Shown here piece after piece: positions 7,500-32,988 of a DNA stretch of 37,729 nt. This DNA comes from a virus. The DNA is taken from the IMG/VR virus record IMGVR_UViG_3300034007_000002, positions 1 through 37,729 of that record, one strand, 5' to 3'. Position numbers and translations under genes: made by a program. Positions within the stretch are counted from its first letter, which is position 1. Each line of letters starts with the position of its first letter. Below the pieces are notes generated by a model, which had not been told where the DNA came from, did not search any database, and was given only the letters and a program-made list of their open reading frames with translations.

Positions 7500-8594
7500 A
7501 TGAGCAACACGCAATTTCTACAGGAGCCGGAACCGCTCGACAGGGAGCAGAACCTCGAAGGCTTCCTCAAGCTACGGCTGCAAAGCCTTGACCGAGCCGT
7601 CGCGGGTTACGTGTCCGTCTCGCTGCAAGGGCTGACCGGCAACGTAGACCTCTCGCCGCCTCAGGCGAAGTACAGGGTCGTGAAGTTGACGGGGGCGCCT
7701 TCGGGCGCCGTCAGCGTCCGCATCCCCGCCACGACCGGCGCGAACGCGGATATTATCTTCGTCAACACCTGCACCGGCTCTAGTTCCACCGTGACGCTCA
7801 AGAGCACGGGCGCGAACGCCGGCAACTCGTCGGGCGTCTCGCTCGCCACGGGTAAGACGCGGCACGTCAGGCACGACGGGGAGAGCGTCTACCCGGTGGC
7901 GCCCGAGCAGGCGACCACGCCGAGCACGCTGACCTCTAGCCTCGTCGCCTACTACAAACTTGACGAGTGGGCGGGGATGCGACTGGACTCGGTCGGCACC
8001 GGCCACCTGACCGACAACAACACCGTGACGCAGAACCCCGGCAAGCTCGGCGCGGCGGCGCAGTTCACGGCCGCAAATTCCGAATACCTGTCCGTCGCCG
8101 ACAACCCGGCGCTCTCGATGGGTAACATCGAGTTCACCGTCTGCGCGTGGGTGTACCTCGACAGCAAGACGGCGGCGCGCACCGTCTGCGCCAAGCGCGG
8201 CGTCGCCGGCGTGAGCGGCGGCGAGTTCTCACTCGTCTACGACAACTCGGCCGACCGCTTCCTCTTCTCCGTCTTCGACTCGACGACGGGTGCTAACACC
8301 GCGACGGCTAACATCTTCGGCAGCCCCTCGACCGGCACCTGGTACTTCCTCGTCGGCATGGTGGAAGGCGGGAACGTGAAGATCAGCGTCAACGGCGGGG
8401 CGTTCAACACGACCGCGAAGACCGTCACCATCCCCGACTCCGCACACCCCTTCTACATCGGCGCGCAGCAGCCGACGCCGACCTTCTTTTGGGACGGGAG
8501 GATTGATACCGTAGGTATTTGGAAGCGGGCGCTGACGGCCGCCGATCTCACGGAGCTTTACAACGGCGGCGCCGGTAAGGAGTACCCGTTCTAG
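7500..8594 (+). CDS. Tail fibre / receptor-binding protein with C-terminal LamG (concanavalin-A-like lectin) domain
   Basis: The C-terminal 220 aa read LVAYYKLDE...GHLTDNN...AAQFTAANSEYLSV...FTVCAWVYLDS...FSLVYD...WYFLVGM...ISVNG...FYIGAQ...FWDGRIDTVGIWKRALTAADLTELYNGG. This is the Laminin_G_3 pattern. It is the last gene of the tail block. Confidence 0.75.
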   Translation: MSNTQFLQEPEPLDREQNLEGFLKLRLQSLDRAVAGYVSVSLQGLTGNVDLSPPQAKYRVVKLTGAPSGAVSVRIPATTGANADIIFVNTCTGSSSTVTLKSTGANAGNSSGVSLATGKTRHVRHDGESVYPVAPEQATTPSTLTSSLVAYYKLDEWAGMRLDSVGTGHLTDNNTVTQNPGKLGAAAQFTAANSEYLSVADNPALSMGNIEFTVCAWVYLDSKTAARTVCAKRGVAGVSGGEFSLVYDNSADRFLFSVFDSTTGANTATANIFGSPSTGTWYFLVGMVEGGNVKISVNGGAFNTTAKTVTIPDSAHPFYIGAQQPTPTFFWDGRIDTVGIWKRALTAADLTELYNGGAGKEYPF

Positions 8595-10373: not shown

Positions 10374-10416
10374 ACCGCCCGGCTCGCCTCCTTTCTCCTG
10401 TGCGGGCAGCGCCCCG

Positions 10417-10445
10417 TTGACACCACGCACCTCCGGTCGTATCGT
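10417..10445 (+). promoter_or_regulatory. Sigma70-type promoter TTGACA-17-TATCGT for the Cys-rich peptide gene
   Basis: TTGACA at 10417-10422, a 17-bp spacer, TATCGT at 10440-10445. The same hexamers and spacing occur at 19394-19422 and 20343-20371. Confidence 0.65.
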
Positions 10446-10505
10446 TCCCCCGTCACGGCCCCTCAACCTCATCGGCTTATGCTACTCACGACGAAGGAGA
10501 ACATC

Positions 10506-10700
10506 ATGCTGAAACGACTCACGCGCAAACTCATCACACTGTCCGTGCTCGTCGTCGCCCTCGCGGCCGTTTCGTCCGCTCCCGCCTCGGCTACGAGCTT
10601 TAACTGGGAATGCTATCAGGCACTCGACCCGAATACGGGGGAGTGCGTTATAATTTGCTGCGATGGTTCATGGTGCGACGGGACCCCCTGCCCAACCTAG
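10506..10700 (+). CDS. Secreted Cys-rich mini-protein (64-aa precursor, 6 Cys in about 35 mature residues)
   Basis: AAGGAG lies 6 nt upstream of ATG 10506. The product is signal peptide MLKRLTRKLITLSVLVVALAAVSSAPASA followed by TSFNWECYQALDPNTGECVIICCDGSWCDGTPCPT. Confidence 0.8.
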   Translation: MLKRLTRKLITLSVLVVALAAVSSAPASATSFNWECYQALDPNTGECVIICCDGSWCDGTPCPT

Positions 10701-12973: not shown

Positions 12974-13002
12974 AGTCTAACGCGAGAGAAAGGGAAAGTC
13001 AA
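12974..13002 (-). promoter_or_regulatory. Leftward promoter TTGACT-17-TAGACT
   Basis: The minus strand reads TTGACT ttccctttctctcgcgt TAGACT. The -10 is embedded in CGCGTTAGACTT. Confidence 0.55.
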
Positions 13003-13016: not shown

Positions 13017-13046
13017 TTGCGTAAACTTTTCTTTGGCGTTAGACTT
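13017..13046 (+). promoter_or_regulatory. Rightward promoter TTGCGT-17-TAGACT, 8 nt upstream of ATG 13054 (leaderless mRNA predicted)
   Basis: TTGCGT aaacttttctttggcgt TAGACT tcccagcc ATG. The -10 is embedded in GGCGTTAGACTT. No SD can fit in the 8-nt gap. Confidence 0.55.
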
Positions 13047-14609: not shown

Positions 14610-15308
14610 ATGGACGAAATAGCAACTCAGAAGTTCGTAAAGGAAGCAGTCTCACAATTCGTAGAGCTATGGGAAGATATTCCTGAAGCCCAACTAATCA
14701 AGCGCGACTCCAATCACTTCTTAATTGTTAAACCAACCTCTCTAATAAAAGAACTAAATGATGCCATACCATACGCAACGATACACATAAACTTAGAAGA
14801 GTTGTCCAGGCATTTTTTAAAGTCCGGGTCTATCGGGGAGCCAAGTATAGATAAAAGGTACATTGCTAAATTACAGATTCACGACATGCTCCGTACGGCT
14901 GAACTTGCCCCTAGCGTCTTCTCCTATTTCCTTAATTTTCTAGAGATATTGACGCTCCGAGAAGGTTTGGAGTCCCTATTAGGGTCTTTATCTGAAGACT
15001 CAAAGACAAAACTTGCAGAAGTTGCTGAACGCCTATTTCAAGTCATGTTGCAGCACTATAAGCTTCTGAAGGAGACAAAGCCCGGAGCCTCAAGTGTTAT
15101 TACTGATTTTGAAGCGCTTGAGGTCTTCCGCAAATCTAGGAATAGAGTGCTTTCCAAACGCCAATTAGCAAAAGAGATGCAAACAACTCCGGCTACCGTG
15201 CGTAGTTGGCTTCACAGAAAGGGATTCAAATCATCTGAAGAATTGCTGGATGATCTTTTAAAGCGTATTCACACTCTAATAGACAATGCACGGGAGGGTG
15301 AGAAGTAA
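14610..15308 (+). CDS. Low-GC paralog 1: unknown N-terminal domain plus C-terminal HTH
   Basis: Aligns by eye with 15380..16147. The N-termini share MDE..Q...K..V..F...W.D.PEAQ..KRD..HFLIVK and HINLEE. The C-termini share KPGASSVI...LAKE..T.PATVR.WL..KG..S..EL.DD. Confidence 0.75.
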   Translation: MDEIATQKFVKEAVSQFVELWEDIPEAQLIKRDSNHFLIVKPTSLIKELNDAIPYATIHINLEELSRHFLKSGSIGEPSIDKRYIAKLQIHDMLRTAELAPSVFSYFLNFLEILTLREGLESLLGSLSEDSKTKLAEVAERLFQVMLQHYKLLKETKPGASSVITDFEALEVFRKSRNRVLSKRQLAKEMQTTPATVRSWLHRKGFKSSEELLDDLLKRIHTLIDNAREGEK

Positions 15309-15379: not shown

Positions 15380-16147
15380 ATGGACGAAGAGGCAATCCAG
15401 AGGCTTGCGAAGAACGTAGTAGTGACGTTTCTAGTGGATTGGAAAGACACGCCCGAGGCGCAGGTGGTTAAGCGAGACGGGGCACATTTCTTGATCGTGA
15501 AGCTAGACTCACCGTTCTCTGCTGCGTTACATATCAATCTGGAAGAGAGATGCGAGCATGAGCTAAAACATCTCTACGAAGTAGTCGGGACGGAAGAAAG
15601 TGCGGACGATACTACTGACCTTATTTATAGTCTCGTCTATCGCCTACCACAGGAACTAACTTACATAACTAGAAGCGTGCCCGGTCTCTTCATCTACAGT
15701 CTTCATCTGCTGGACTTGTTAGCGTACCGTGAGCGCCTACGATCTGTATCAGAGTCTTTAACTCAAGGCAGACGGGAAAGGACTGAACTAGTAGCCAGAA
15801 TATTAACTCAAGGGTTATTACTGGCGCATGGCTTAACAGAGAGAAAGAAGCCGGGAGCATCAAGTGTCATCGATGACGACAAAGTACTTGATATTTTTCT
15901 TAGACTCCAAGGTGACGTGCCTTCAATCCGTAGGTTAGCAAAAGAACTAGAAACCGAACCTGCCACCGTGCGTAACTGGCTTCGCAAGAAGGGCTACAAC
16001 TCGCCTAAAGAATTAGCAGACGACGTAGTAAATTCAAATTCCAACTCAAAAGTAGATTTCTTTCTAAAAGTCAAAAGGTTACTTACTAAAAGTCAAAAGG
16101 GAACAACGGAAAGAAAGCAAAGGGGGAGGGTAGAAATTAAGCCCTAA
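15380..16147 (+). CDS. Low-GC paralog 2: unknown N-terminal domain plus C-terminal HTH
   Basis: Shares the motifs listed for 14610..15308. Its last codons lie inside the left arm of the 33-bp inverted repeat. Confidence 0.75.
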   Translation: MDEEAIQRLAKNVVVTFLVDWKDTPEAQVVKRDGAHFLIVKLDSPFSAALHINLEERCEHELKHLYEVVGTEESADDTTDLIYSLVYRLPQELTYITRSVPGLFIYSLHLLDLLAYRERLRSVSESLTQGRRERTELVARILTQGLLLAHGLTERKKPGASSVIDDDKVLDIFLRLQGDVPSIRRLAKELETEPATVRNWLRKKGYNSPKELADDVVNSNSNSKVDFFLKVKRLLTKSQKGTTERKQRGRVEIKP

Positions 16148-16211
16148 TCCTACCCGGGTAGAATTAACCTCGAATTATTACCTGGGTAGGATTAGGGCTT
16201 AATTTCTACCC
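16128..16211. repeat. 33-bp inverted repeat (one mismatch, G-U compatible) around an 18-nt spacer
   Basis: The left arm GGGTAGAAATTAAGCCCTAATCCTACCCGGGTA (16128-16160) pairs with TACCTGGGTAGGATTAGGGCTTAATTTCTACCC (16179-16211). Confidence 0.9.
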
Positions 16212-16213: not shown

Positions 16214-16241
16214 TTGACAGGATTTAGATTGGCGTTAGACT
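16214..16241 (+). promoter_or_regulatory. Promoter TTGACA-16-TAGACT
   Basis: TTGACA at 16214-16219 and TAGACT at 16236-16241. The -10 context TTGGCGTTAGACT is identical to that at 13033-13045. Confidence 0.55.
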
Positions 16242-16526: not shown

Positions 16527-16859
16527 ATGAAAAACCCCTTTCAGAACGGTTCGCTACGTTACGTCGAGGCGAACGGCGTCCGCTTTACTCGATCCGTCTG
16601 CGGGTACTGCGGTCTTCCCTGTGTCTACCTGGGGGAGGCCATCCGCATCGACTTAGCCGAGGGCGGCTTCCAAATCCTCCACGTCTGCCTCCCCTGCCGA
16701 CGGCACCTGTGTTTAGACCTGCGGGGGTTATCGGACGCCGAAGTAGACCGCCTCGGATATCCCAGCGGGTATCCCAGCGGGTATCCCAACCGCTCGCCGA
16801 GAAACGAGCGCCACCTCGAAGAAGTGCACAGCCGGTGGGAAAGGAGACGTGCAGCGTAA
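16527..16859 (+). CDS. Zinc-ribbon protein (110 aa) with a GYPSGYPSGYP repeat, translationally coupled to the primase gene
   Basis: CGYCG...C...HVCLPC forms a four-Cys motif. Its TAA overlaps the primase ATG (TAATG). The alternative frame, the N-terminal extension of the 774-aa ORF, is Arg-rich and protein-unlike. There is no clear SD before ATG 16527. Confidence 0.55.
   Translation: MKNPFQNGSLRYVEANGVRFTRSVCGYCGLPCVYLGEAIRIDLAEGGFQILHVCLPCRRHLCLDLRGLSDAEVDRLGYPSGYPSGYPNRSPRNERHLEEVHSRWERRRAA
16756..16791. repeat. Tandem 12-bp repeat x3 (GATATCCCAGCG GGTATCCCAGCG GGTATCCCAACC)
   Basis: Read directly. It lies inside the zinc-ribbon ORF, about 70-100 bp upstream of the primase start. Confidence 0.9.
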
Positions 16860-18769
16860 TGGCTCAGCCCGCCACGGCCTTCACGAAGCAGGACGCGAAG
16901 AGGGACCGCCAGACTTACCAGCGGCTCGCCGGCATCGTTGACCGCCTCCTGCACCGTGACATCCAACGCCTCGACGAAGAGACGGCGCGGAAGTTCTTCA
17001 AGTCGTCGGTCTTCGCCACCATCCACAGCCTGCACGGATTCCTGAACGGCCGCGAGGTCTCGCACGACAGGCCGGTGATGAAGGCTCACAAGTTCGTCGT
17101 CGAGCACTTCGGCTACCGCGGCGACCGCGAGAACGACGCGGCCGTCGCGCGCTTCATGGCGCGCCACCTCTCGGGGCTGGCCGACGCGGAGAGGGCCGTC
17201 GGGCACCGGTACGTCACCGTCCGCCGCGCCGACAATCAGACCCAGCTCTTCACCAGCTACGAGGGCACACCGCTGCTCGACGCGGCCGAGTGGGTCTACT
17301 TCACGGCGCGGCAGAAGCCCGACTACTGGAAGAACCCGGCGGCGGCCGTGACGGACGATTTGCTCGACGCCGCGCTCGCCAAACTCCCCGAGGTCAAGAC
17401 GCGGGACGACTCCATGCCGTGCGGTCATGCGCCCGAATCCGGCGAGTGCGACGAGTGCGTGCCTAAGACCTTCTGCGGGCATCCTTCGGGGTCGGGCCAG
17501 TGCGAAGAGTGCGAGAAATGGGAGGCGGGCGACCTGATGAACGATTCAGTCGTCAAGGGCATGTGGACGAAGATAATAAACGCCGCCGAGCGGGCGTTAA
17601 TCAAGGAGTTCGATTCCGGCGCGGACCCGGAGCTGGCCGCCGCCAAACACGCCGCGAAGATTATCGAGATGGGCAAGCATATCAAGGAGAAGCTCGCCCG
17701 CGAGCGGCTTCGGGCGGCGATGATGCCTGCGCGGCGACATGACGAGGAGGACGAGGACACGCAAACGACGCACAGTGGTAAAGAAAGTGTTACCTCAAAC
17801 GCGGGGGGTACCCCTGACAAATTTGTCAGGGTACCCGATGATTATGTAGTTGAACCGGTTGAGGTTACTGAACCGGCCGCAGAGGATTTACCCGAAATTC
17901 AGCGCAACGCGCTCGAATACGCGGCGGCGGGGATCGCCGTCCTCCCGCTGTGGGGGGTCGCGGACGCGATTTGTGATTGCCCCGCGGGTTCGGAGTGCCG
18001 GACGGCCGGGAAGCACCCGCACAGCCAGCTCGCCCGGAACGGCGTCTACTCGGCTACGATCGACGGGCAGGTCATACGCGGCTGGTTCAAGAAAGACCCG
18101 CGGATCAACCTGGGGGTTGCGATGGGCGGCGCCCTCAACCTCATCTGCGTAGACATAGACCCGCGCAACGACGGCGACGCCTCGTATTCAGATTTGATAG
18201 ACGCCCACGGCGAAGACGCCTTTCCCGAGACGTTCACCGTGAAGACCGGCGGGGGCGGCTGGCACCGCTACTACAGGCTCCCCTACACCATCAAAGCCGA
18301 GAAAGGCGAGCTAAAGGGAAAGCTCGGCCCCGGCATCGACATCAAAGGCGCGGGCGGGCAGATAGTCGCGCCCGGCTCAGTTCACTCAAGCGGCGCTTCC
18401 TATCAGGTCGAAACTAACGCCTACATCGTGGAAGCCCCGGAGTGGATGGTAAACGTCCTGCTCAAGTCGGCGTCCGGCGAGAAGCCCGAGGTCGTTGTTG
18501 ACTTTCAGGCGCACAGCGACCGGAAGCGCGCGGGGGTGGGCGGCCCAATCATCGTCGAGGGCGAGCGCAACGAAAGGCTCTTTAAGGTCGGGTGCGCGCT
18601 GTGGGGCAAGGGCGAAGTGGGGAGCCGGGGGGAGTTGTTACAGCGCCTCTCCGAAGTGAACCTCAAAAGGGTGTCACCCCCGCTCGACTCGGATGAGGTT
18701 TGGAAGATTGTTGAGAGCATAGTGAGCCGCTACGCCCTAGGCGTGCCGATTAAGGAAGGTGCCGCATGA
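16859..18769 (+). CDS. Bifunctional primase-polymerase (Prim-Pol domain plus PriCT-like C-terminus) with a roughly 330-aa N-terminal region of unknown type
   Basis: AAGGAG lies upstream of ATG 16859. Prim-Pol motifs are GIAVLPLWG...GKHP...NLICVDIDPRNDG...GGGWHRYY...GIDIKGAGGQIVAPGSVH. The C-terminus GERNERLFKVGCALWGKG...PLDSDEVWKIVESI is PriCT-like. Confidence 0.85.
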   Translation: MAQPATAFTKQDAKRDRQTYQRLAGIVDRLLHRDIQRLDEETARKFFKSSVFATIHSLHGFLNGREVSHDRPVMKAHKFVVEHFGYRGDRENDAAVARFMARHLSGLADAERAVGHRYVTVRRADNQTQLFTSYEGTPLLDAAEWVYFTARQKPDYWKNPAAAVTDDLLDAALAKLPEVKTRDDSMPCGHAPESGECDECVPKTFCGHPSGSGQCEECEKWEAGDLMNDSVVKGMWTKIINAAERALIKEFDSGADPELAAAKHAAKIIEMGKHIKEKLARERLRAAMMPARRHDEEDEDTQTTHSGKESVTSNAGGTPDKFVRVPDDYVVEPVEVTEPAAEDLPEIQRNALEYAAAGIAVLPLWGVADAICDCPAGSECRTAGKHPHSQLARNGVYSATIDGQVIRGWFKKDPRINLGVAMGGALNLICVDIDPRNDGDASYSDLIDAHGEDAFPETFTVKTGGGGWHRYYRLPYTIKAEKGELKGKLGPGIDIKGAGGQIVAPGSVHSSGASYQVETNAYIVEAPEWMVNVLLKSASGEKPEVVVDFQAHSDRKRAGVGGPIIVEGERNERLFKVGCALWGKGEVGSRGELLQRLSEVNLKRVSPPLDSDEVWKIVESIVSRYALGVPIKEGAA

Positions 18770-19259: not shown

Positions 19260-19393
19260 TCTTTTACGCGAAGGACGATCGGCGTGAGGGTTCTGCCTAG
19301 CGAAACAATTTCCTGCCCAACAGAACGCCGGTCAGCTTGTCCCGTTAGGCAAAGCCGGTCGAGCCGTATCGCCGCCATACAACAGGCTGCCCG

Positions 19394-19422
19394 TTGACAG
19401 CCCTCCCCTCCCGGCGTATCGT
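19394..19422 (+). promoter_or_regulatory. Promoter TTGACA-17-TATCGT for 19497..19754
   Basis: TTGACA at 19394-19399 and TATCGT at 19417-19422. The leader resembles the one at 10417-10505. Confidence 0.65.
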
Positions 19423-19496
19423 TACCGCGTTCCTCGGTTGCGTTACGGTCCCTCAACCTCAACGGCTCCAGGCCACTCACGACGAAGGAGAACACC

Positions 19497-19754
19497 ATGC
19501 TGAAACATCCCGCGGGGCGACTCGCCCGCCGCCTCTCCGCCCTGTTCATGCTCGCCGCCGCCCTCACGACGCTCCTGTCAAATCCCGTTAGCCACCAAGC
19601 CGAGGGTTGGGCGGGCACTCCCGACTGGCCGCCGTGCTGTGGGTATACGTGTTCTCTGTCAATAGACGATGAGACGCAACAGTGCGTTATGACTTGCTGC
19701 CGGTGGCCGTCAGGCTGCATGACGGGCCCTTGCAGTCCAGAAGTGGAACCGTAG
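19497..19754 (+). CDS. Secreted Cys-rich mini-protein (85-aa precursor, 8 Cys), paralog of 10506..10700
   Basis: AAGGAG SD and a hydrophobic signal region. The tail CCGYTCSLSIDDETQQCVMTCCRWPSGCMTGPCSP aligns with ECVIICCDGSWCDGTPCP of the paralog. Confidence 0.8.
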   Translation: MLKHPAGRLARRLSALFMLAAALTTLLSNPVSHQAEGWAGTPDWPPCCGYTCSLSIDDETQQCVMTCCRWPSGCMTGPCSPEVEP

Positions 19755-20471: not shown

Positions 20472-20702
20472 ATGACCAGAACTTTAACGGCGACGATCTG
20501 GCGCGAGACGGACGGCTACGTCTCCCTCTGCCCCGAACTCGACATCGCCTCACAAGGGGATACGGTCGAGGAGGCGCGGGCGAACCTCCAGGAGGCGGTG
20601 GACCTCTTCTTCGAGGCGGCGGACGCCTCCGAGGTGGCCGAGCGTCTGAAGCCCGAGATGTACGTCACTTCGCTGGAGGTCAACGTTGGGGAGGCTGCGT
20701 AG
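20472..20702 (+). CDS. hicB: HicB-family antitoxin
   Basis: LTATIWRETDGYVSLCPELDIASQGDTVEEARANLQEAVDLFFE fits the HicB/UPF0150 N-terminal pattern. It overlaps the downstream toxin gene. Confidence 0.85.
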   Translation: MTRTLTATIWRETDGYVSLCPELDIASQGDTVEEARANLQEAVDLFFEAADASEVAERLKPEMYVTSLEVNVGEAA

Positions 20703-20910
20703 GCTCTCGGGGCGCGAGGTCTGCGCCATCCTCGCCCGCCACGGCTTCGCCGAGGCCCGCCAGCGCGGGAGTCACGTGGTCATGCAGAGGAGGACGGACC
20801 AGGGGACGGTGACCGTGCCGGTACCCCTCCACAACGAGCTGCGCACCGGCACGCTCCACTCCATCATCAGGCAGTCGGGGGTTCCGCGGGCGGAGTTCGA
20901 GACGGAGTAA
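20686..20910 (+). CDS. hicA: HicA-family mRNA interferase toxin (TTG start)
   Basis: LSGREVCAILARHGFAEARQRGSHVVMQR....VTVPVPLHNELRTGTLHSIIRQSGV fits the HicA/YcfA pattern. Confidence 0.85.
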   Translation: MGRLRRLSGREVCAILARHGFAEARQRGSHVVMQRRTDQGTVTVPVPLHNELRTGTLHSIIRQSGVPRAEFETE

Positions 20911-20976
20911 CACCTTCCCCGTCAACGGAGATGTCCCACTTTTGGGCACGCCGGCCTGAAATTCCCTCTCAAATCT

Positions 20977-21194
20977 TCTGACGCGAGTCTCTGACGCGGA
21001 GGCCGTTTTTTGACCTCTCTGACGCGCGTAACCCTCACGCCTAGAATCACTTACAGCCGAAAATTTTCGCGTCAGAGACTCGGGATGTTTTTTATTTCTT
21101 GTAAGTTAAAGCAAATACAAGACTTATGGCGCTAAAAATCCGCGTCAGAGAGCCTCGCTATTTTAGTTGTAATGCGTTAGAAAGTTCTGACGCG
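20977..21194. repeat. Array of six 9-bp repeats TCTGACGCG (extended consensus about TCTCTGACGCGGA)
   Basis: Forward copies at 20977, 20990, 21018 and 21186; reverse copies (CGCGTCAGA) at 21068 and 21141. All lie in a lower-GC stretch of about 620 bp with no convincing ORF. Confidence 0.9.
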
Positions 21195-21537
21195 GAGTGT
21201 TATGTGAAGTTCAGCAGCCGGGGTCGGGGCAGATGCAGGGTTGAAAAGTAGAGATTGTGCCGGAGCCGAGATCAATCGAAAGCCGTAGCAAATGACGGGA
21301 GAGTAATGCGGCTGTGACGTCCGGAATAACGCCCGAGTAACGAAGAAATAATGGCCATGAGGGTTGGTTATAGGAAAAAGCCGAAAAGGTTGACTTGGAT
21401 TCATGAGATTAGTGAGTCGATAATTTGCGTTGAAGCAGAAGTCGAGTGCAGAAGCTGTAGATGGTTGTTCCCGACATCCTACGGCTTCACGATCTAGAAC
21501 TAACCTTCAATTCTTACCCACCCCTCCCCGAATTATC

Positions 21538-21567
21538 TTGACTTCCCTTCCCTCATCAACGTATAAC
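21538..21567 (+). promoter_or_regulatory. Promoter TTGACT-18-TATAAC, 8 nt upstream of ATG 21576 (leaderless mRNA predicted)
   Basis: TTGACT tcccttccctcatcaacg TATAAC cacccgtt ATG. There is no SD. Confidence 0.55.
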
Positions 21568-21575
21568 CACCCGTT

Positions 21576-22433
21576 ATGAAGGCTTACAAGGATTTTGGCC
21601 TTAAAGAGAATCCATTCGTGCCGAGTCCGAACCCCCGGTTCCTCTACCTGACCGACCAGACGAATGCTTGCCTCTTCAAGTGCAAGTTTGTCATCGAGGA
21701 GCGGCAGGGACTCTCCCTCATCGTCGGGAAAATCGGCTACGGCAAGACTTCGGTGCTGCGCGAGCTCCTGAACGGGTACATCGACGACGAGACTTACAAG
21801 ATCGCGATGCTCCCGAACGGCAGCTTCCCTTCCGAGATGCAGCTCGCGAAGGCCATCTCCAGTGAGTTGGGGCTCCCGGGTCGCCGGTCATTACTCGCGC
21901 AAATAAATGAGATACGCGACTACGCTTTCCAGATTTACGGCGGCGGCGGGACCATCATTCTCATCATCGACGAGGCGCAGAATCTTAAGGGCGCTCAGTT
22001 CGATTTCCTCCGGGAATTGCTCAATTTTGAGAGTAACGAGGCGAAGACCATTCAGATCATCATCGCCGGCCAGCCCGAGATTGAAACCAAACTGGCGACC
22101 AAGCCCGCACTCGTCTCCCGCATCATCCTGACGAACTACCTGGATACCTTCACGTTCGAGGACATGGTGGCCGCCCTGGAGCACCGGATACGCCTCGCCG
22201 GGGGTAAGCTCGACATCCTCGGTGAGGACGCGTTGAAGGCTCTCTACGTCGCTTCCAGGGGCGTCCCGCGCGAGATCATGAAGATTGCCAACGCTTCCCT
22301 TCTCCTCGCGGCCGTCAACGAAACCAGACCGATCACCGACGGCATCATCAAGCTAGCGGTCGAGAACATTTTGAGCACGGAACGAAATGGAGAACCGGAA
22401 ACCACTGAACTTCGCGCAGGCGCTTCGCAGTAG
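21576..22433 (+). CDS. ExeA-like AAA+ ATPase (AAA_22 type; relatives include ExeA, TniB and MuB-like proteins)
   Basis: FGLKENPFVPSPNPRFLYLTDQ...LIVGKIGYGKTSVLRELL (Walker A) and IILIIDEAQNL (Walker B). Confidence 0.85.
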   Translation: MKAYKDFGLKENPFVPSPNPRFLYLTDQTNACLFKCKFVIEERQGLSLIVGKIGYGKTSVLRELLNGYIDDETYKIAMLPNGSFPSEMQLAKAISSELGLPGRRSLLAQINEIRDYAFQIYGGGGTIILIIDEAQNLKGAQFDFLRELLNFESNEAKTIQIIIAGQPEIETKLATKPALVSRIILTNYLDTFTFEDMVAALEHRIRLAGGKLDILGEDALKALYVASRGVPREIMKIANASLLLAAVNETRPITDGIIKLAVENILSTERNGEPETTELRAGASQ

Positions 22434-23169
22434 GCCGCGCGAGTCACCCGATAACCAACCGGCAGAACGTCAAGTATCCACCACGGCTGATAGCCAGCTA
22501 TCCACCACGGCGGCTATCCAGCAACCCACCGCGCCGGCAACACAGATTCCACCACCTAGCCTGCTAGCCACCACCCCCTCGGAACCGGCTATCCAGCAAT
22601 CCCCAAAGCGCAGGGTGGATAGCCACCGGAAGAAACGTGTGGATAGCCGAAAAGGCGACCGGCATCGTGGGGACAAGGTGCCCTTCAACAACCGGTTAAG
22701 CTCGGAGACAGTCAGCCGTATCAAACACTTCTGCGTGGATCATGGACTTGAGCAACAGGAATTCGCCGAGCTCGCGGCAATCCACTTTATGGATGCGGTG
22801 GATAGCCAGAAAGCCGAAGCGTCGGATAGCAAGATAGCCTCTGATGATAGAGAATTGATGATACTATTTAGAACGGAGCTTAGTATCATCAATCTCTACC
22901 TTCAGTACAACCCCGAAAACCGGTGGAAACCGGCCGACGACTACGAGGGTCAGCGGTATAACGGGAAGGACATTCGCCTTGTCGAAATCGGCATCATCCA
23001 GACCCAATTCAACGCGAGGTTCAAGAAGGTCAACTCGTTCAAATACTACACGACCGAGATAGACGAGGCGCTGGCCGTGCCCCTCACAGGTGAGACAATC
23101 GACATCATGCTCAGACAGGGCCGCCGCAGGTGGGAACAGGCGACCGGCAAGCTTATAAGCACACCTTAA
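22387..23169 (+). CDS. Ribbon-helix-helix-like DNA-binding protein (260 aa) carrying an intragenic iteron cluster
   Basis: The low-complexity N-terminus (STTADSQLSTTAAIQQ...RRVDSHRKKRVDS) is encoded by the repeats. FNNRLSSETVSRIKHFCVDHGLEQQEFAELAAIHFM then fits a strand-helix-helix pattern. The C-terminal 120 aa are of unknown type. Confidence 0.7.
   Translation: MENRKPLNFAQALRSRPRESPDNQPAERQVSTTADSQLSTTAAIQQPTAPATQIPPPSLLATTPSEPAIQQSPKRRVDSHRKKRVDSRKGDRHRGDKVPFNNRLSSETVSRIKHFCVDHGLEQQEFAELAAIHFMDAVDSQKAEASDSKIASDDRELMILFRTELSIINLYLQYNPENRWKPADDYEGQRYNGKDIRLVEIGIIQTQFNARFKKVNSFKYYTTEIDEALAVPLTGETIDIMLRQGRRRWEQATGKLISTP
22474..22839. repeat. About ten copies of a GGATAGCC / GGCTATCC core in two opposed orientation blocks
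   Basis: GCTATCCA-type copies at 22474, 22497, 22512 and 22587. TGGATAGCC-type copies at 22614, 22638 and 22797, with partial copies at 22488, 22823 and 22832. Several match the DnaA box TTATCCACA at 7-8 of 9 positions. Confidence 0.85.
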
Positions 23170-26391: not shown

Positions 26392-26892
26392 ATGGCTAAA
26401 GGTAATAAGAAGGGCGAAGAGGTGAATATATCCGAGCTCGCGCGGCGCGCGGGGCTCAATCGAGCAACCGTCAGGGAGAAGCTCGAAAGTAAGGGCGTCG
26501 AGCCGCGGCAGAAGAAAGCTAAAGAGAAGCTGTACGACCTCGACGAAGCGCTGGGCGCGCTCCAAACCGACGGCGCGACGGGGCTGCGGAAGGCGCAGAC
26601 GATGAAGACGGCGGCCGAGGCCGGCCGCGCAAAGCTCAGGCTCGACAGGGAGCGGGGCGAGCTGGTTCCGATTCACGACGTGCGCGCCGACGTGCAGGCA
26701 ATCATGCAGCAGGTTCTACAGCACTTCTCGGTGACGGCCCCGGCCGCGCTCGCGCCGCAGCTACGCGGAAAGAAGGTCGCGCAGATTGAGGCGTTGCTCG
26801 GGCGCGACGCCGAGCAGTTTTTCAGGGACTTACGAGGCGAAGAGGAGACGTATCTCAGTGAGGCGGCAGCGGAGGACAAGGGTAGTAGCTGA
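26392..26892 (+). CDS. Terminase small subunit, Nu1-like
   Basis: N-terminal HTH VNISELARRAGLNRATVREKLESKGV...KLYDLDEAL, followed by a helical region, as in lambda Nu1. It lies directly upstream of the large subunit. Confidence 0.75.
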   Translation: MAKGNKKGEEVNISELARRAGLNRATVREKLESKGVEPRQKKAKEKLYDLDEALGALQTDGATGLRKAQTMKTAAEAGRAKLRLDRERGELVPIHDVRADVQAIMQQVLQHFSVTAPAALAPQLRGKKVAQIEALLGRDAEQFFRDLRGEEETYLSEAAAEDKGSS

Positions 26893-28849
26893 GGCGATCG
26901 TCGCGGCGATCCCCGACACCGGCCTGACCGCCTCGCAGTGGGCGGCCAAGCACCGGCGCATCTCCGCGCTCTCGCCGATGCCCGGCCCGTGGCGCAACGA
27001 GGTCACGCCCTACCTCGTCGAGCCGATGGACTGCCTCGGCCTGCCCGGCGTCTACGAGATTATCTTCGTGGCCTCGGCGCAGATAGGTAAGACCGAGTTT
27101 TGTAACAACGGCGTGGGGTACTTCATGCACCATGAGCCGAGTTCAATCCTCTACGTCGCCGAGACGGACAAGAAGGCCGAGGCGTGGTCGAAGGAGAAAC
27201 TAACTCCGATGATTCGCGCCACGCCGGTACTTCGGTCTTTGGTCAGGGACAGGCGCGAGCGCGACTCGGGCAACACCATCGAGGGCAAGTCCTTCCCCGG
27301 CGGCTTCCTCGCCATCGGCTACGCGACGAGCGCCGAGACGCTTTCCTCGCGCTCCTCCCGCGTGGCCTTCCTCGACGAGCGCGACGCCTACAAGCGGACG
27401 AAAGAGGGCGACCCGGCGGCGCTGGCCGAGAAGCGCACCATCACCTTCAAGGAGCGGCGGAAGGTCGTCAAAGTGTCGAGCCCGCGCGACCGGCTGGAGC
27501 CTCCGCAGGGTGCTCCACCTGACGCCCCAAAGTTTTCGCCTATCGAGTGGGAGTATGAGCAGAGCGACAAGCGCAAGTATTGGGTTCCGTGTCCCCACTG
27601 CGGCGAGTATCAGGTCTTGACCTGGAAGAACGAGGCGGGCGACTACTGTATCAAGTGGGACGGCGACGACGTAGAAAACGCCTTCTACGCCTGTCAGGTC
27701 TCGGGCTGCGTCATCGAGCACGAACACAAGGCCGACATGCTTGCGGCGGGTGAATGGCGCGCGGAGAACCCTTTCAACGGCCGCGCCGGCTTCTGGATTT
27801 GGGAGGCTTACTCTCCCTTCGTTACCTGGGGACAGATCGCCGCCAACTTCCTGCGAGCCAAGAATGACGCCGAGCAGTTGAAGGTCTTCGTCAACACGAC
27901 TCTCGCGCAGGGGTGGGAAGAGTTTCAGGGCGGTATCGAAGTGACAGACCTCGAAGAGAGGCGCGAGCCTTACATCGAGTTCCTGCCCGACGGCGTGCTC
28001 ATCATCACCGCCGCGACCGACGTGCAGCACAACCGCTTAGAGTATGAAGTCGTCGGCTGGGGTCAGGACTTCGAGAGCTGGTCACTCGATTACGGCGTCA
28101 TCCCCGGCGACCCGTCGCAGGCTGAAGTCTGGGAAAAGCTAAAGGTCGCGCTGACCCGCGGCTTTGAATACGAGGCGGGTCTCGGCGGCGTCGAGCTGGC
28201 GGACGACGAGAGCGGCGCCAGCGCCGTGCTTCAGATGCGTGTCATGGCGGCGTGCATAGACTCGGGCGGGCATCACTCGGAAGACGTGTATCGCTTCTGC
28301 CGCGCGAACGCCGCACGCCGCTTCTACGCCGTGAAGGGCGCGAACGTGCCCGGTAAGCCGCTCGTCTCCCAGCCTTCTTTACTCAGGAAGGCCGGCGGGT
28401 TCGTGCGCCTCTACACCGTGGGAACTGAGACGGCGAAAGACACTTTCGTCAACCGGCTCGCGGTCAAAGAGGCGGGGCCGGGCTTCTGTCACTTCCCCGA
28501 CGAGTTCGAGCGCGACGGCCGCATTTACTACGGTGAGGACTACTTTAAACAGTTGCGCTCCGAGCACGCGGTTATGAAGCGCACGAAGCGCGGGACGGCG
28601 CGCGTGTGGGAGAAGATAAAAGCGAGCTGGCGTAACGAAGCTCTCGACCTGCGGGTCTACAACATGGCCGCGCTCGCCATCCTCGGCATTGACCGGGAAG
28701 CCCTCGACAGACTCGCCGAGCGCCGCGCCGAGGGTAAGCCCCTGCCGCAGCCCCCGGCCGAAGGCCAGAAGAGGAAATCAATAATCCGCAGCACTGGTAA
28801 GGGCTTCGTCCCGCCCTTCTCGCGCGGCGGGTTCGGAAGGAGATTCTAG
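26858..28849 (+). CDS. Terminase large subunit, GpA family
   Basis: GAGGAG lies 10 nt upstream of GTG 26858 (alternative ATG at 26786). VASAQIGKTEF is the Walker A motif typical of lambda gpA relatives. Length is about 660 aa. Confidence 0.9.
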   Translation: MRRQRRTRVVAEAIVAAIPDTGLTASQWAAKHRRISALSPMPGPWRNEVTPYLVEPMDCLGLPGVYEIIFVASAQIGKTEFCNNGVGYFMHHEPSSILYVAETDKKAEAWSKEKLTPMIRATPVLRSLVRDRRERDSGNTIEGKSFPGGFLAIGYATSAETLSSRSSRVAFLDERDAYKRTKEGDPAALAEKRTITFKERRKVVKVSSPRDRLEPPQGAPPDAPKFSPIEWEYEQSDKRKYWVPCPHCGEYQVLTWKNEAGDYCIKWDGDDVENAFYACQVSGCVIEHEHKADMLAAGEWRAENPFNGRAGFWIWEAYSPFVTWGQIAANFLRAKNDAEQLKVFVNTTLAQGWEEFQGGIEVTDLEERREPYIEFLPDGVLIITAATDVQHNRLEYEVVGWGQDFESWSLDYGVIPGDPSQAEVWEKLKVALTRGFEYEAGLGGVELADDESGASAVLQMRVMAACIDSGGHHSEDVYRFCRANAARRFYAVKGANVPGKPLVSQPSLLRKAGGFVRLYTVGTETAKDTFVNRLAVKEAGPGFCHFPDEFERDGRIYYGEDYFKQLRSEHAVMKRTKRGTARVWEKIKASWRNEALDLRVYNMAALAILGIDREALDRLAERRAEGKPLPQPPAEGQKRKSIIRSTGKGFVPPFSRGGFGRRF

Positions 28850-29407
28850 GTGAACAGCTACGAACCGACAGAGATAACGCCCGGTGAGACCATCGAATGG
28901 TCAAAGGCTCTCGCCGCCTACAGCCCGGCCGAGGGTTGGGCGCTCACCTACTACTTCCGCAACGCCTCGGGGACGGGCTTCGACGCTACGGCTACGGCCG
29001 GCGTCAATTCGTGGGAGGTGTCCGTAGTCGTGCCCGCGAACGTCGGCGCGGGGCGGATAGATTGGGAGGCGTGGGTTAAGAAGGGGAGCGACGAACGCCT
29101 CGCCGACAAGGGTACGGCGACCGTCACGGCGAGCCTTAAGGCGACCGCCGCCAACGCTCAGGTAGATAACCGCTCGCAGGCCGAGAAAGACCTCGACGCG
29201 GTGCGGGCGGCGCTCTTCCCCGCGACCTCCGCCTCGGTGCAGGAGTATGAGATCGGCGGGGTCAATTCAAGCCGCCGCATACGCCACTTCGAGAAGTCCG
29301 AACTGCTCGCGCTCGAAACGAGTCTCGCGCAGCGGGTGAACGCCGAGAGGCGAGCCTCCGCCCGCGGGAACGGCGCACCCTACTTTAAGAACATCTACCC
29401 GAGGTGA
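28850..29407 (+). CDS. gpW-like head-tail joining domain with an N-terminal extension of about 110 aa
   Basis: The C-terminal EKDLDAVRAALFP...VQEYEIGGVNSSRRIRHFEKSELLALETSLAQRV...GAPYF parallels lambda gpW (AAARAALHDL...[26 protein letters not shown]...GPAGFY). It sits between the terminase and portal genes. Confidence 0.7.
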   Translation: MNSYEPTEITPGETIEWSKALAAYSPAEGWALTYYFRNASGTGFDATATAGVNSWEVSVVVPANVGAGRIDWEAWVKKGSDERLADKGTATVTASLKATAANAQVDNRSQAEKDLDAVRAALFPATSASVQEYEIGGVNSSRRIRHFEKSELLALETSLAQRVNAERRASARGNGAPYFKNIYPR

Positions 29408-29411
29408 AGCC

Positions 29412-30980
29412 ATGGGCCTGAATCCTTTAAACCTAGACCTTCCCCCGATGTCGGCCGTTGTGGCGGAGCGCAGACGCACAGCCGCCGCGGTTCAGTTAGA
29501 GCGGCGGATTGAGGAAGGTAAGCGCGAGATGGCACGCGTCCGCCAGATGGCGCGCGCCTACGGCGCCGCCCGCCAGTACGCCGCCGCCACGGTTGACCGC
29601 TTCTCGTCCGACTGGTCGGTGGCGTCTACGACCTACCAGACCGAGATTTACCGGCACCTCCGCTCCTTGCGCGCGCGCAGCCGGGATATGGCGCGGAACA
29701 ATCCCCACATGAAGCGGTTTCTGGGGATGGTGCGCCGTAACGTCGTCGGCCCCGCCGGCATCAAGCTACAGGTGCGCGCGAAGCGTGGGAACGAACTGGA
29801 CGAACTGCTCAACAACGAGGTGGAGGAAAAGTTCAAGGAGTGGGCTTTGCCGGAGAACTCCTCGGCCTCGGGTAAATACTCTTGGGTGGACTGTCAGGGA
29901 ATGGCGATACAGACGATGGCGCGTGACGGGGAGTTTCTGTGTCGCTTCATCGAAGATGATAACCCGTTCGGCTTCTCTCTTCAGTTCTACGATGCCGCCT
30001 ATCTGGACGAGACTTTTAACGAAGTCCTCAAGAACGGCAACCGCGTCGTGACGTCCGTCGAGGTGAATAGAAGGAACCGCCCCGTCGCCTACTACTTCAC
30101 CACGCCGAAGTATGACGTGGCGCCTTACGTCACCGAGAGCATGGAGCGGGTGAGAGTCCCGGCCGAGGAGGTCGTCCATTGCTTCCTGCCCTTCGAGGAC
30201 GACGGCCAGATCAGGGGCGTGCCGTGGGCGCACGCCGCCATGTGGAACCTGCGCAAGCTCGGCCAGTTCGAGGAGGCCGCGCTCATCAACGCCCACATCG
30301 CCGCGTGCAGCATGGGCTTTATGATTCCGCCCGCCAACGCCGAAGGTGCGGGCATACCCGAGGAAGAGGGGCGCGCGCCGATAGAGGCCGAGTACGTGCC
30401 GGGCGTTCTGCGAGAGCTACCGCCCGGCTACGACGTGAAGACGATTGACGCGGCGCACCCCAACAACGACTTCGACCCGTTCACCTCGACGGTGCTGCGC
30501 GGCGCCGCCTGCGGCCTCGACGTGTCTTACTTCGCCCTCGCGGGAGACTTAGAGGCGGTCAACTACTCGTCGGCGCGCGTCGGCCTGCTCGACGACCGCG
30601 ACACCTACCGCACCCTTCAAATCTTCCTCATTAACCACTTCTGCCGGCGCGTCTATCAGCGATTCCTCACGCGCGGAGTTCTGACGGGGGCGCTTAACAT
30701 CCTGCCCTCGGATATTGGGCGCGTAAAGATGCCGGACTTCCAGCCGAGGGGCTGGGATTGGGTAGACCCACTCAAGGACGTGGCGGCCAACGTCGAGGCC
30801 ATCAACAACGGCTTAGACACCCGCTCGCGCGTCATCGCGGAGCGCGGCGGCGACTTCGAGGAGGTCGTGCGCAGGCTCGCCGAAGAGCAGGAGTTTTTGC
30901 AGAAGCACGGCGTCGTGACGAAGAGCGGGGAGCTTGCCGTGCTCGCTTCTATCGCCGCCGCTACCGATGGCAAGGGGTAA
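29412..30980 (+). CDS. Portal protein, lambda family
   Basis: 522 aa in the expected position, with RSRDMARNNPHMKRFLGMVRRNVVGPAGIKLQ typical of Phage_portal_2. Confidence 0.9.
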   Translation: MGLNPLNLDLPPMSAVVAERRRTAAAVQLERRIEEGKREMARVRQMARAYGAARQYAAATVDRFSSDWSVASTTYQTEIYRHLRSLRARSRDMARNNPHMKRFLGMVRRNVVGPAGIKLQVRAKRGNELDELLNNEVEEKFKEWALPENSSASGKYSWVDCQGMAIQTMARDGEFLCRFIEDDNPFGFSLQFYDAAYLDETFNEVLKNGNRVVTSVEVNRRNRPVAYYFTTPKYDVAPYVTESMERVRVPAEEVVHCFLPFEDDGQIRGVPWAHAAMWNLRKLGQFEEAALINAHIAACSMGFMIPPANAEGAGIPEEEGRAPIEAEYVPGVLRELPPGYDVKTIDAAHPNNDFDPFTSTVLRGAACGLDVSYFALAGDLEAVNYSSARVGLLDDRDTYRTLQIFLINHFCRRVYQRFLTRGVLTGALNILPSDIGRVKMPDFQPRGWDWVDPLKDVAANVEAINNGLDTRSRVIAERGGDFEEVVRRLAEEQEFLQKHGVVTKSGELAVLASIAAATDGKG

Positions 30981-31013
30981 GTGAGTGCTGCGTACAAAAT
31001 AATTGTTTGAGGC

Positions 31014-31061
31014 CGTGCCATAGTGCCGTCCGGGGAGCCACCCCGACGAAGCTATGGCACG
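31014..31061 (+). promoter_or_regulatory. 10-bp hairpin that sequesters the start codon of the protease-capsid ORF
   Basis: CGTGCCATAG (31014-31023) is the exact reverse complement of CTATGGCACG (31052-31061). The latter contains ATG 31054. Confidence 0.5.
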
Positions 31062-32988
31062 CACCTCAGAAGACATTAAAAAGTTACTCGGCCAGCCGCT
31101 CAAGCACTCGTTCCCGTTGGACGACGGCGAGAGTCGCGCAGCCGCCGTCGGAGCTGCCGCGCTTGATGAAGAGACGCGCAGCGTCTCTCTCATCCTCACG
31201 ACCGACCGGCCTATCTTCCACGGCTTCGCCTACATCAAGCTCGACCACTCGCCCGAGTGCATCAAGCTCGACCGCCTGAGAACTGCCGCGCCCTTCCTCG
31301 AAAACCACGACCCCGACCGCCGCCTCGGCCGCCTGCGCGACCCGGAGACAGACGGGCAGGTCTTACGCGTGCGCGCCCGCTTCTCAAACCGCCCCCTCGC
31401 CAACGAAATTTTCGAGGAAGTCAAAGACGACCTCGCCGCCGGCGACTACACGCCGACCTCTTCCGTCTTCATCGTCCACAAGTTCGCGCCGAAGTCGGAG
31501 GGCGAGATTGACGGCTATCCGGTTTACCGCGCCGTCCTGTGGGAGCCGATAGAGGGGTCTGTCGTCTCTGCCGCCGCCGACATCGCGGCGGGCATCGGGC
31601 GCGCGATGGCCGACGAGGAGGACAGGGCGCACGACTCTGAGAGTTGCACTATTGAAGGTTGCCCCGAGTGTGCGGCCGCCGCCGCAGAAGATGGAGGGCG
31701 ACAAGCCCCGATAGAACCGGCGACCGCCGCAGCGCGCGCCGCGAGTATCACACCGAAGGAGAACGTCATGGAAGCGAGAGACGAGATTTTGAAGCTCGGC
31801 GAGATGCTCGGGCAGGTGGACTTGGCGCGGAACTACATCGCCAACGACAAGACGCTGGACGAGTTCAAGGAGGCCGCGCGCGCCGTCCTCAACAAAAACC
31901 AGCCCGTCGTCGAGCCGGGGCAGCAGCCCGTAGACCTGACGCCCGACGAGAAGAAACGCTACTCGATGGCGCGCGCCATTCTCTCGGCGCTCGACGGCGA
32001 GAAGTCTTTCGAGCGCGAGGTCTCGGACGAGATCAGCCAGAGGATAGGCAAGAGGCCGCGTAACGACCGCTCCATCTTCGTGCCGACGGGCGTCACGCTC
32101 TACGGCGGCCCCGAGTTCAAGCGCACGCCGCTGACTACGGCCGGCGCGTCCACGGGCGCGGACATCCTCTTCGTCGAGCCGGGTTCGTTTATCGAGATGC
32201 TGCGCGCCCGCGCGAAGGTCTTCCAGTTGGGCGCAACCCTGCTTCCGGGGCTGACGGGTAACGTCGCCTTCCCGAAGCAGACCGGCGCGGGCACGCTCTA
32301 CTGGCTCGGGGAGAACCCCGGCGCGGACGTTACCGAATCGAACATCAGCCTCGATCAAGTGGTGCTCGCGCCCAACACGGCGATGGCGCAGCAGGGCTAC
32401 TCGCGCCAGCTCCTCCGCCAGTCCGGCGGCGTCGTTGACCAGCTCGTCACCAACGACCTGCGCCGCACGGCCGCCCTCGGCATAGATCGCGCCGTCGTCC
32501 ACGGCGCGGGCGGCGACGAGCCGACCGGCATCTACATTGCCTCGGGCGTCAACCCCGTGCCGTCCGGCGGCGCTATCACCTACCCGAAGGTCGTCCAGAT
32601 GGAGACCGAGGTGGCGATGGACGACGCCGACATCGGGGAGATGGCCTACCTGACGACGCCTGGCGTGCGCGGCGCGGCGAAGACCACCCAGAAGTTCACC
32701 GGCACGAACGGCCAGCCTATCTGGGAAGGTAACGAGATGAACGGCTACCGCGCCGAGGCTTCGACGCAGGTGCGCTCCAACATGGGCGCGGGCACGAACG
32801 AGCACGGCATCGTCTTCGGCGTGTGGCCGCAGGTCATCGTCGGCGAGTGGGGCGCGATGGAAATCCTGACCGACCCCTACACGCTCGCCGGCCGCGGCCT
32901 CGTCCGCCTGGTGCTCTTCCTGATGGCCGACGTGGCGCTGCGCTACCCCGAGGCGTTCAGCAAGGGCACGGGTCTGACCGCTGCGTAA
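31054..32988 (+). CDS. In-frame fusion of an S78-type prohead protease and an HK97-fold major capsid protein (644 aa)
   Basis: The N-terminal 190 aa are protease-like (SLILTTDRPIFHGF...LENHD...LGRL...VFIVHKF...WEPIEGSVVSAAAD). The C-terminal 400 aa are HK97-capsid-like (FVEPGSFIEMLRARAKVFQLGATLLPGLTGNVAFPKQTG...ILTDPYT). No stop codon separates them. Confidence 0.85.
   Translation: MARTSEDIKKLLGQPLKHSFPLDDGESRAAAVGAAALDEETRSVSLILTTDRPIFHGFAYIKLDHSPECIKLDRLRTAAPFLENHDPDRRLGRLRDPETDGQVLRVRARFSNRPLANEIFEEVKDDLAAGDYTPTSSVFIVHKFAPKSEGEIDGYPVYRAVLWEPIEGSVVSAAADIAAGIGRAMADEEDRAHDSESCTIEGCPECAAAAAEDGGRQAPIEPATAAARAASITPKENVMEARDEILKLGEMLGQVDLARNYIANDKTLDEFKEAARAVLNKNQPVVEPGQQPVDLTPDEKKRYSMARAILSALDGEKSFEREVSDEISQRIGKRPRNDRSIFVPTGVTLYGGPEFKRTPLTTAGASTGADILFVEPGSFIEMLRARAKVFQLGATLLPGLTGNVAFPKQTGAGTLYWLGENPGADVTESNISLDQVVLAPNTAMAQQGYSRQLLRQSGGVVDQLVTNDLRRTAALGIDRAVVHGAGGDEPTGIYIASGVNPVPSGGAITYPKVVQMETEVAMDDADIGEMAYLTTPGVRGAAKTTQKFTGTNGQPIWEGNEMNGYRAEASTQVRSNMGAGTNEHGIVFGVWPQVIVGEWGAMEILTDPYTLAGRGLVRLVLFLMADVALRYPEAFSKGTGLTAA
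31768..32988 (+). CDS. Probable internally initiated major capsid protein (406 aa), nested in frame in 31054..32988
   Basis: AAGGAG (31756-31761) lies 6 nt upstream of in-frame ATG 31768. The product starts MEARDEILKLGEMLGQ, a typical capsid delta/scaffold-like N-terminus. Confidence 0.5.
   Translation: MEARDEILKLGEMLGQVDLARNYIANDKTLDEFKEAARAVLNKNQPVVEPGQQPVDLTPDEKKRYSMARAILSALDGEKSFEREVSDEISQRIGKRPRNDRSIFVPTGVTLYGGPEFKRTPLTTAGASTGADILFVEPGSFIEMLRARAKVFQLGATLLPGLTGNVAFPKQTGAGTLYWLGENPGADVTESNISLDQVVLAPNTAMAQQGYSRQLLRQSGGVVDQLVTNDLRRTAALGIDRAVVHGAGGDEPTGIYIASGVNPVPSGGAITYPKVVQMETEVAMDDADIGEMAYLTTPGVRGAAKTTQKFTGTNGQPIWEGNEMNGYRAEASTQVRSNMGAGTNEHGIVFGVWPQVIVGEWGAMEILTDPYTLAGRGLVRLVLFLMADVALRYPEAFSKGTGLTAA

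Follow-up and report, generated by a model that had tools for sequence, protein, structure and literature searches.

Multi-site operators made up of asymmetric repeats are known from several phages, and the Cox boxes of P2, the Apl boxes of 186 and the repressor sites of Mu are examples. In these systems short asymmetric motifs lie around a promoter in mixed orientations and with a fixed geometry, within a non-coding region at the edge of the early operon. The gene for the protein that binds them lies beside the sites, and the switch cannot work without the region. In phage lambda the replication origin lies inside gene O and combines short repeats with an AT-rich stretch near replication genes. 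Plasmids, in turn, have accessory control loci such as incA of P1 and the leader of inc18 repR with its antisense RNA. These are dispensable non-coding elements beside a rep operon, which modulate replication rather than start it.

We have analysed a 37,729-nucleotide stretch of viral DNA (referred to below as the window) in which six copies of TCTGACGCG are clustered upstream of a replication operon. The array resembles the P2, 186 and Mu operators in its motif type, mixed orientations, geometry and position, but differs from them in having no adjacent cognate gene, in that the motif is found nowhere else in the genome and in being optional. Like the lambda origin, it has short repeats and an AT-rich stretch near replication genes; however, its sequence does not follow the initiator and relatives manage without it, and the architecture of the lambda origin is seen here at 22470-22893, inside the gene after the ATPase gene, and not at the array. 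As with incA and the repR leader, the array is a dispensable non-coding element beside a replication operon, which it would modulate rather than start. In contrast with incA, which shares its iterons with the P1 origin, the array motif differs from the origin repeats of this phage, and in contrast with the repR leader, neither an antisense promoter nor an attenuator terminator could be shown for it. The array adds a new example to a familiar class of elements, in a lineage of phages and plasmids that is unstudied.

The phage genome and the six-site array

The array is carried by a complete, circular soil phage genome of ~37.6 kb. The assembly is considered complete and circular because there is an exact terminal overlap of 127 bp (1-127 / 37603-37729) and a match to a 37,743-bp ENA contig. 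In the scan of window proteins, neither an integrase nor a ParA, ParB or ParM/ParR family was detected. The circular assembly, the lack of detectable integrase, ParA and ParB and the presence of hicBA suggest that this element may be a phage-plasmid. The main features are given in Table 1.

Table 1. Positions of the genes, sites and candidate control elements discussed in the text
Feature	Position	Strand	Remarks
Tail genes	67-8594
Putative early operators AGTCTAACGC	12974-12983; 13036-13045; 16232-16241	+; -; -	Overlap TAGACT -10 hexamers
Early rightward operon	13054		Position of first gene, HTH_17
Prim-Pol gene	16859-18769		636 aa
Small secreted-protein morons, then hicB and hicA	20686-20910 (hicA)		Downstream of Prim-Pol
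Gap between hicA and ATPase gene	20911-21575		665 bp; GC 0.49 (genome 0.62)
Optional non-coding module	20926-21505		~580 bp; palindrome, six-site array and purine-rich spacer; ends approximate (left ~20915-20926, right ~21497-21510)
Dyad-symmetric site TGTsCC-N7-GGsACA	20932-20950		Left edge of module; kept in 4/4 arrays
Site 1, TCTGACGCG	20977-20985	+	Exact in 4/4 arrays
Hairpin then T6, terminator-like	20987-21012		Contains site 2; weakened in L073
Site 2, TCTGACGCG, extended TCTCTGACGCGGA	20990-20998	+	Exact in 4/4 arrays
Site 3	21018-21026	+	TTGACCTCTCTGAC invariant, 3' GCG variable
Candidate -35 CTGACG	21019-21024	+	Overlapped by site 3
Candidate -10 TAGAAT	21042-21047	+	17-18 nt after site-3 CTGAC(G/A); TAGAAC in two relatives
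Site 4	21068-21076	-	Exact in 4/4 arrays
AT-rich spacer, sites 4-5	21078-21140		63 bp; GC 0.32; conserved T/A tracts
Site 5	21141-21149	-	Exact in 4/4 arrays
Site 6	21186-21194	+	Exact in 3/4 arrays; TCTGACGAG in L073
Purine-rich spacer	21216-21505	+	Sequence poorly conserved, length constant
ATPase operon promoter TTGACT-18-TATAAC	21538-21567	+	Conserved in all relatives, with or without array
AAA_22/ExeA-like/MuB-like ATPase gene	21576-22433	+	Pfam AAA_22 3.8e-21; PHROG 296; TIGR03015-like
Variable initiator gene g2	22387-23169	+	Overlaps ATPase gene by 47 nt
Iteron cluster GGCTATCCA inside g2	22470-22830	both	Five exact copies plus variants
AT-rich palindrome inside g2	22854-22893		3' of GGCTATCCA cluster
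Lambda-type small and large terminase, portal, capsid	26392-32988

The initial annotation reported six copies of the 9-mer, and the position and orientation of each were confirmed. There are exactly six copies in the window, four forward and two reverse, all within 20977-21194, and no further exact copy elsewhere. In dinucleotide-preserving shuffles the mean was 0.81 copies per window and none of 100 shuffles reached six, and a Poisson estimate for at least six copies in 218 bp is ~3e-19, bearing out the statement that this density is beyond chance. Copies with one mismatch occur elsewhere in the window at chance level (21 against 19.9 expected). The extended consensus that had been proposed, approximately TCTCTGACGCGGA, fits sites 2 to 5 but not the other sites. 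An inverted repeat, CTTGTA...TACAAG, had also been pointed out; it is present in the window, but none of the three related arrays preserves it, and for that reason it is probably not meaningful. The dyad at the left edge of the module occurs once in the window and, among all loci, only in those that bear the array.

The stretch had been described as low in GC, free of ORFs and flanked by hicA and a leaderless ExeA-like gene, and the GC content (Table 1) and flanking genes are as described. The stretch is also non-coding: the window and the related phage L003 share no conserved small ORF, the lengths of the indels among related arrays are not divisible by three and no gene was called here by the ENA gene caller. 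A small protein gene was accordingly rejected, as the ORFs are unconserved and the indels shift the frame.

Elsewhere in the genome there are two paralogous moron cassettes (10413-10565 and 19390-19568) with a common TTGACA-17-TATCGT promoter, each with a conserved leader, a GAAGGAG ribosome site and then a small Cys-rich protein with a signal peptide. The cassette is also found in L002, L004 and L044. Two tandem paralogues with a C-terminal helix-turn-helix (14610-15308 and 15380-16147) lie inside an island of 45% GC; they have a single homologue in L044, with ~40% identity, and no family match was found for them. Directly after the 255-aa gene, at 16128-16211, there is an inverted repeat of 33 nt, 97% complementary, which just precedes the promoter of the Prim-Pol operon (TTGACA at 16214).

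An optional module beside a replication operon

Four elements carry the module: the window, one further IMG/VR phage (L003, L007 and L044) and two contigs of Acidobacteriota MAGs (L073 and L128), of which L128 is from Pyrinomonadaceae. The records other than the window are IMGVR_UViG_3300034030_000018, JAVXWN010000068.1 (31 kb) and DASVGG010000052.1 (15.8 kb). Alignment of the four arrays gives a mean pairwise difference of 0.037 for the 54 motif columns and of 0.215 for the 202 spacer columns, so that the motif columns differ five to six times less (permutation p < 1e-4). In the right-hand 284 bp of the module the mean pairwise difference is 0.40. Sites 1, 2, 4 and 5 are invariant and site 6 has changed once, in one genome, while the last three bases of site 3 differ in three genomes (GCC, ACG and GGG). 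The spacing of the sites is 13, 28, 50, 73 and 45 bp in three of the arrays, and the fourth departs from this by a single compensated base. Site 1 and the -35 hexamer of the ATPase promoter lie 559-561 bp apart in all four carriers, a distance that is constant because real indels of ~9-11 nt in the diverged 290-bp spacer offset each other. As in an operator array, therefore, the sites are more strongly constrained than their surroundings and their geometry is kept.

Conservation among relatives had been proposed as a check in the initial annotation. The array is kept in the four carriers but is missing in 15 of the 16 other relatives that have the downstream ATPase gene; the sixteenth (L055) has no upstream sequence. 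These 16 are L001, L002, L004, L005 and 12 metagenome relatives (71-96% identity), with absence in 11 of the 12. The ATPases of L001, L002 and L004 are 96-97% identical to that of the window, yet ~580 bp (~20915-21505) are missing in all three. The absence is clean, in that the upstream gene joins the conserved promoter directly; in L002 it is the stop codon of hicA that runs directly into the conserved promoter region. The array is also independent of the flanking genes, as it occurs with or without hicBA and with initiators of type A, B or C (see below). Its orientation with respect to the ATPase promoter is always identical and the ATPase gene is the only gene that always adjoins it. Taken together, the data show that the array sites are real, selectively conserved and fixed in geometry, and that the array is always linked to the ATPase promoter, optional and independent of the initiator.

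No further array was found at other loci in IMG/VR (doublet pattern and invariant 17-mer), in phage and plasmid collections (blastn) or when the spurious ORFs running across the array were used as protein queries. Applied to 185,579 species genomes, the doublet pattern recovered only the known MAG-contig carriers. The remaining pattern matches were tandem repeats of 12, 13 or 18 bp or chance, and a literature search for the motif gave unrelated primer matches only.

Two relatives have features of interest in their own right. In L073, non-phage cargo (DUF4337, a GAF-like protein and an S1/P1 nuclease) comes after hicBA, the array, the ATPase and the initiator in the region 3351-7629. This backbone beside non-phage cargo suggests that the same replicon is present in a plasmid-like element of an Acidobacteriota MAG. 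The array-less L004 (1930-2543, 2745-3077 and 5114-5617) has a short Prim-Pol of 339 aa and then a dense non-coding repeat region, together with a MazF-like toxin and a gene for an RRM_1 RNA-binding protein, which is unusual in a phage.

The operon downstream of the array begins with the ATPase gene, whose product is 93-97% identical among array carriers; a single-sequence structure prediction of the ATPase gave an unusable model (pLDDT 39.7). The second gene, g2, contains an internal repeat cluster in every relative, and the sequence of the repeat follows the type of the g2 protein. Type A has the repeat GCTATCCAC (window, L001, L045, L046 and L048) and type B has GTGGACGCC (L003, L002 and L073), while type C (L004 and L128) and more distant members have other repeats. 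The type C proteins match Pfam Phage_rep_O (lambda O-like), as does the gene after the AAA_22 ATPase in L167, an unrelated Prim-Pol phage. The internal clusters and the Phage_rep_O matches suggest that the ATPase and g2 form a replication-initiation module with the origin embedded as in lambda. Since repeat sequence and protein type change together in all relatives, the origin is probably the cluster at 22470-22893 inside the initiator gene. The array carriers have initiators of type A (window), B (L003 and L073) and C (L128), and TCTGACGCG is identical across all of them.

In phages with a related Prim-Pol (L163, 3697-5320; L166, 6703-7293; L167, 1-1016), the slot upstream of the Phage_rep_O initiator is taken by a ParA/CbiA-type or an AAA_22 ATPase with the same overlap with the initiator. 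L163 has CGGTATACC palindromes inside rep_O.

Promoter elements and the search for a binder

The ATPase mRNA appears to be leaderless, because the ATG lies 8 nt after the -10 hexamer. Upstream of this promoter, in the region 21506-21575, there is a strongly conserved C-rich stretch, AATTCCTACCCACCCCCCTC..., which is also present in all relatives (71%-97%) and may be the operon's own control site.

There is a second promoter-like element within the array itself. A promoter scan scored it 9/12 in the window and 10/12 in L073, a consensus match only. Both hexamers are kept in all four arrays while the spacer between them varies, and relative to an inferred start near 21054 the position of site 4 is ~+15. 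Site 3 retains CTGAC and the TAGAA(T/C) downstream of it is also retained, while the 3' GCG of the site drifts; this fits a promoter or an operator and does not fit base-pairing. The idea that each 9-mer is the -35 of a separate promoter was rejected, as there is a -10 at the right distance for site 3 only. Hexamers similar to those of the array element are found in the phage's other promoters (TTGACA-16-TAGACT, TTGCGT-17-TAGACT and TTGACT-18-TATAAC).

These other promoters appear, from their sequences, to be controlled by AGTCTAACGC, a motif that resembles the core of the array motif. AGTCTAACGC is an asymmetric 10-bp site found in either orientation at the promoters of the HTH_17 early gene and the Prim-Pol operon. 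Like the array sites, the early operators are thus asymmetric, ~10 bp long, in either orientation and overlapping promoter hexamers. The cores differ by one base (TCTAACGC against TCTGACGC), with G in the array in place of A. This difference and that of the flanks are kept apart in both of the genomes that can be compared (window and L044), which suggests that the array and AGTCTAACGC are probably read by different, perhaps related, proteins.

In L044 the AGTCTAACGC position is occupied by AGTMTAACGC. L046 has ACACGCGTGT at this position, together with a different HTH_17 recognition helix. As recognition helix and operator change together in L046, HTH_17 belongs to the AGTCTAACGC-type operator, and it was rejected as the array binder for this reason. 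The array was also rejected as an operator for HicB, given that L002 has hicBA without the array and that L003 and L128 have the array without hicBA. No regulator that co-occurs with the array was identified, in that no gene within 3-5 kb in the visible flanks is specific to the four carriers, and there is no second copy of TCTGACGCG at any candidate regulator gene in the window.

Tentatively, and with somewhat less than even confidence, we favour the view that the array is an accessory cis-regulatory, protein-binding region that is position-coupled to the promoter of the replication operon; protein binding, promoter activity and a regulatory outcome are all inferred. A self-contained, accessory stretch of non-coding control DNA would have the array at its core and would lie a constant distance ahead of the promoter that drives the replication operon, which comprises the AAA+ ATPase gene and the initiator gene containing the origin. 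Its six asymmetric sites of 9-13 bp would dock a sequence-specific DNA-binding protein, with the separate dyad at the left edge, and this protein would be a host factor or be encoded elsewhere in the element, and not beside the array. Sites 3 and 4 would bracket the promoter-like element, sites 1, 2, 5 and 6 would serve as auxiliary sites and the AT-rich segment of 63 bp would separate sites 4 and 5. Occupancy of the sites may then repress or tune rightward transcription into the replication operon and the origin, possibly with looping to the main promoter ~350 bp downstream.

The initial annotation had listed an operator array for the early rightward operon among the candidate roles. An operator array is the reading that fits best, given site 3 over the -35, site 4 at ~+15 and the fixed distance to the ATPase promoter, but a cognate regulator was not found and the operon that the array precedes is the replication operon. 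Several observations count against regulation of this kind. The promoter-like element is a consensus match, with TAGAAC in two of the four arrays, and sites 5 and 6 and the main promoter are widely separated for a simple operator. Copies in both orientations around an AT-rich stretch fit replication roles equally well. Additionally, comparisons have little power, as there are only four related arrays.

Alternative roles for the array

An auxiliary role in replication is unlikely, although it is the alternative that we take most seriously. The array might be a second, specialised origin, a site where the 636-aa Prim-Pol primes, a fork barrier or a copy-control site; in either of the last two cases it would stand 1.3 kb from the main origin. 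Its layout is origin-like, with copies in both orientations around 63 bp at 32% GC, and there are precedents, as the alpha primase of phage P4 binds short iterons in both orientations and RepB' of RSF1010 uses inverted ssi sites. The long Prim-Pol is present in both carriers with a visible upstream region (window and L044; 91% identical) and absent from all six array-less relatives with at least 5 kb of upstream sequence, and the array-less L004 has its different, short Prim-Pol followed by a repeat-rich non-coding region of its own. However, this co-occurrence rests on two closely related genomes. There is no Prim-Pol in the 3.1 kb upstream of the L128 array, the L073 array lies in a non-phage context, and contigs with Prim-Pol homologues show no such array, although several are too short to tell. 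Neither a DnaA nor an IHF consensus was found in the array region, although these consensus sequences may not be those of the host. The array keeps its position with respect to the ATPase promoter, and 2.2 kb separate it from the Prim-Pol gene.

We consider it rather unlikely that the array acts as RNA. In this case a long 5' leader or a non-coding RNA would pair forward with reverse copies of the motif (sites 2/5, 3/4 and 5/6), and the replication operon would be controlled by attenuation or antisense, as in plasmid copy control. There is perfect complementarity over 15 nt between sites 2 and 4 and over 13-14 nt between sites 2 and 5, and a two-sided change in L073 (GGA/TCC to GAA/TTC) keeps the pairing of sites 2 and 5, with a G-U intermediate of this change in L128. 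The fold has a z-score of -2.6, four compensatory pairs occur in a long-range helix (21204-21214 with 21395-21404) and the length of the leader is conserved. Against this, there are four forward copies and two reverse ones, so not all can pair, and the changes in site 3 break the pairing with site 4 in three genomes while the promoter-like part is invariant. Changes in the flanks are split, some being compatible with a plus-strand RNA and others with a minus-strand RNA. The right part has a weak consensus fold (-9 kcal/mol), predicted with these same four sequences as input. There is no Rfam match at the gathering score, the best (caiA, E-value 4.9) being at chance level.

It is improbable that the array is a centromere-like or other cis-acting stability site for a plasmid prophage, with a host factor or a partner not yet recognised as its binder, possibly together with the MuB/ExeA-like ATPase. 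The genome is circular with no integrase detected, toxin-antitoxin genes lie nearby and the succession of hicBA, array, ATPase and initiator beside non-phage cargo in L073 is like a plasmid backbone; furthermore, a ParA-type ATPase fills the slot upstream of the O-like initiator in related replicons. In the window, however, no member of the ParA/ParB family was detected and the adjacent ATPase is AAA_22. Most relatives with the same ATPase lack the array, and the array sites are irregularly spaced, unlike the tight arrays typical of known centromeres. A centromere-like site, another of the roles first proposed, is therefore without support, as ParA/ParB was not detected and the array is optional.

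A more speculative idea, to which we give little credence, is that the array, the MuB/ExeA-like ATPase and the variable O-like initiator together constitute a new partition or copy-control apparatus. This would be a hitherto undescribed maintenance or replication-control system of Acidobacteriota phage-plasmids, with the ATPase in the ParA slot and the fixed-distance TCTGACGCG array as its cis site. In another form of this idea, the array alone would be the dedicated start site for a Prim-Pol without a helicase.

Finally, the array can hardly be the primary replication origin, with the motif copies as iterons of the adjacent initiator: it immediately precedes the replication operon and contains an AT-rich stretch, but the initiator gene holds iterons of its own that co-vary with its type in every relative, whereas TCTGACGCG is unchanged with all three types (A, B and C) and is missing from 15 of the 16 other relatives, with one locus uninformative. 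The array repeats thus neither co-vary with the initiator nor occur in every member of the replicon family, which argues that g2 does not read them and largely excludes the origin iterons of the initial annotation.

Other classes of element were also rejected. A lambda-type cos site does not agree with the position of the terS-like gene (26392, five kb away) or with the absence of the module in relatives that have homologous terminase genes. An attP with arm-type sites was rejected because no integrase was detected and the module is intact in both MAG contigs. A MITE or small mobile element was rejected because there are no terminal inverted repeats and the four copies are always at the same locus. 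A dif/cer-like Xer site near site 6 has a weak XerD-like arm and no XerC arm, and is not conserved.

To our knowledge, almost nothing is known of replication control in the phages and plasmids of soil Acidobacteriota. The locus described here, which we tentatively regard as an accessory control region for the replication operon, is a compact cis element of six sites and one dyad at a fixed distance from a leaderless promoter, and it adjoins a replication module in which relatives have exchanged the initiator along with its embedded iterons. The module is a clean natural case of presence and absence for functional work. The probable origin inside the initiator gene, with repeats that co-vary with its type, may outweigh the array in usefulness. 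The identity of the protein that binds the array would show whether a host factor is wired into phage and plasmid replication in Acidobacteriota.
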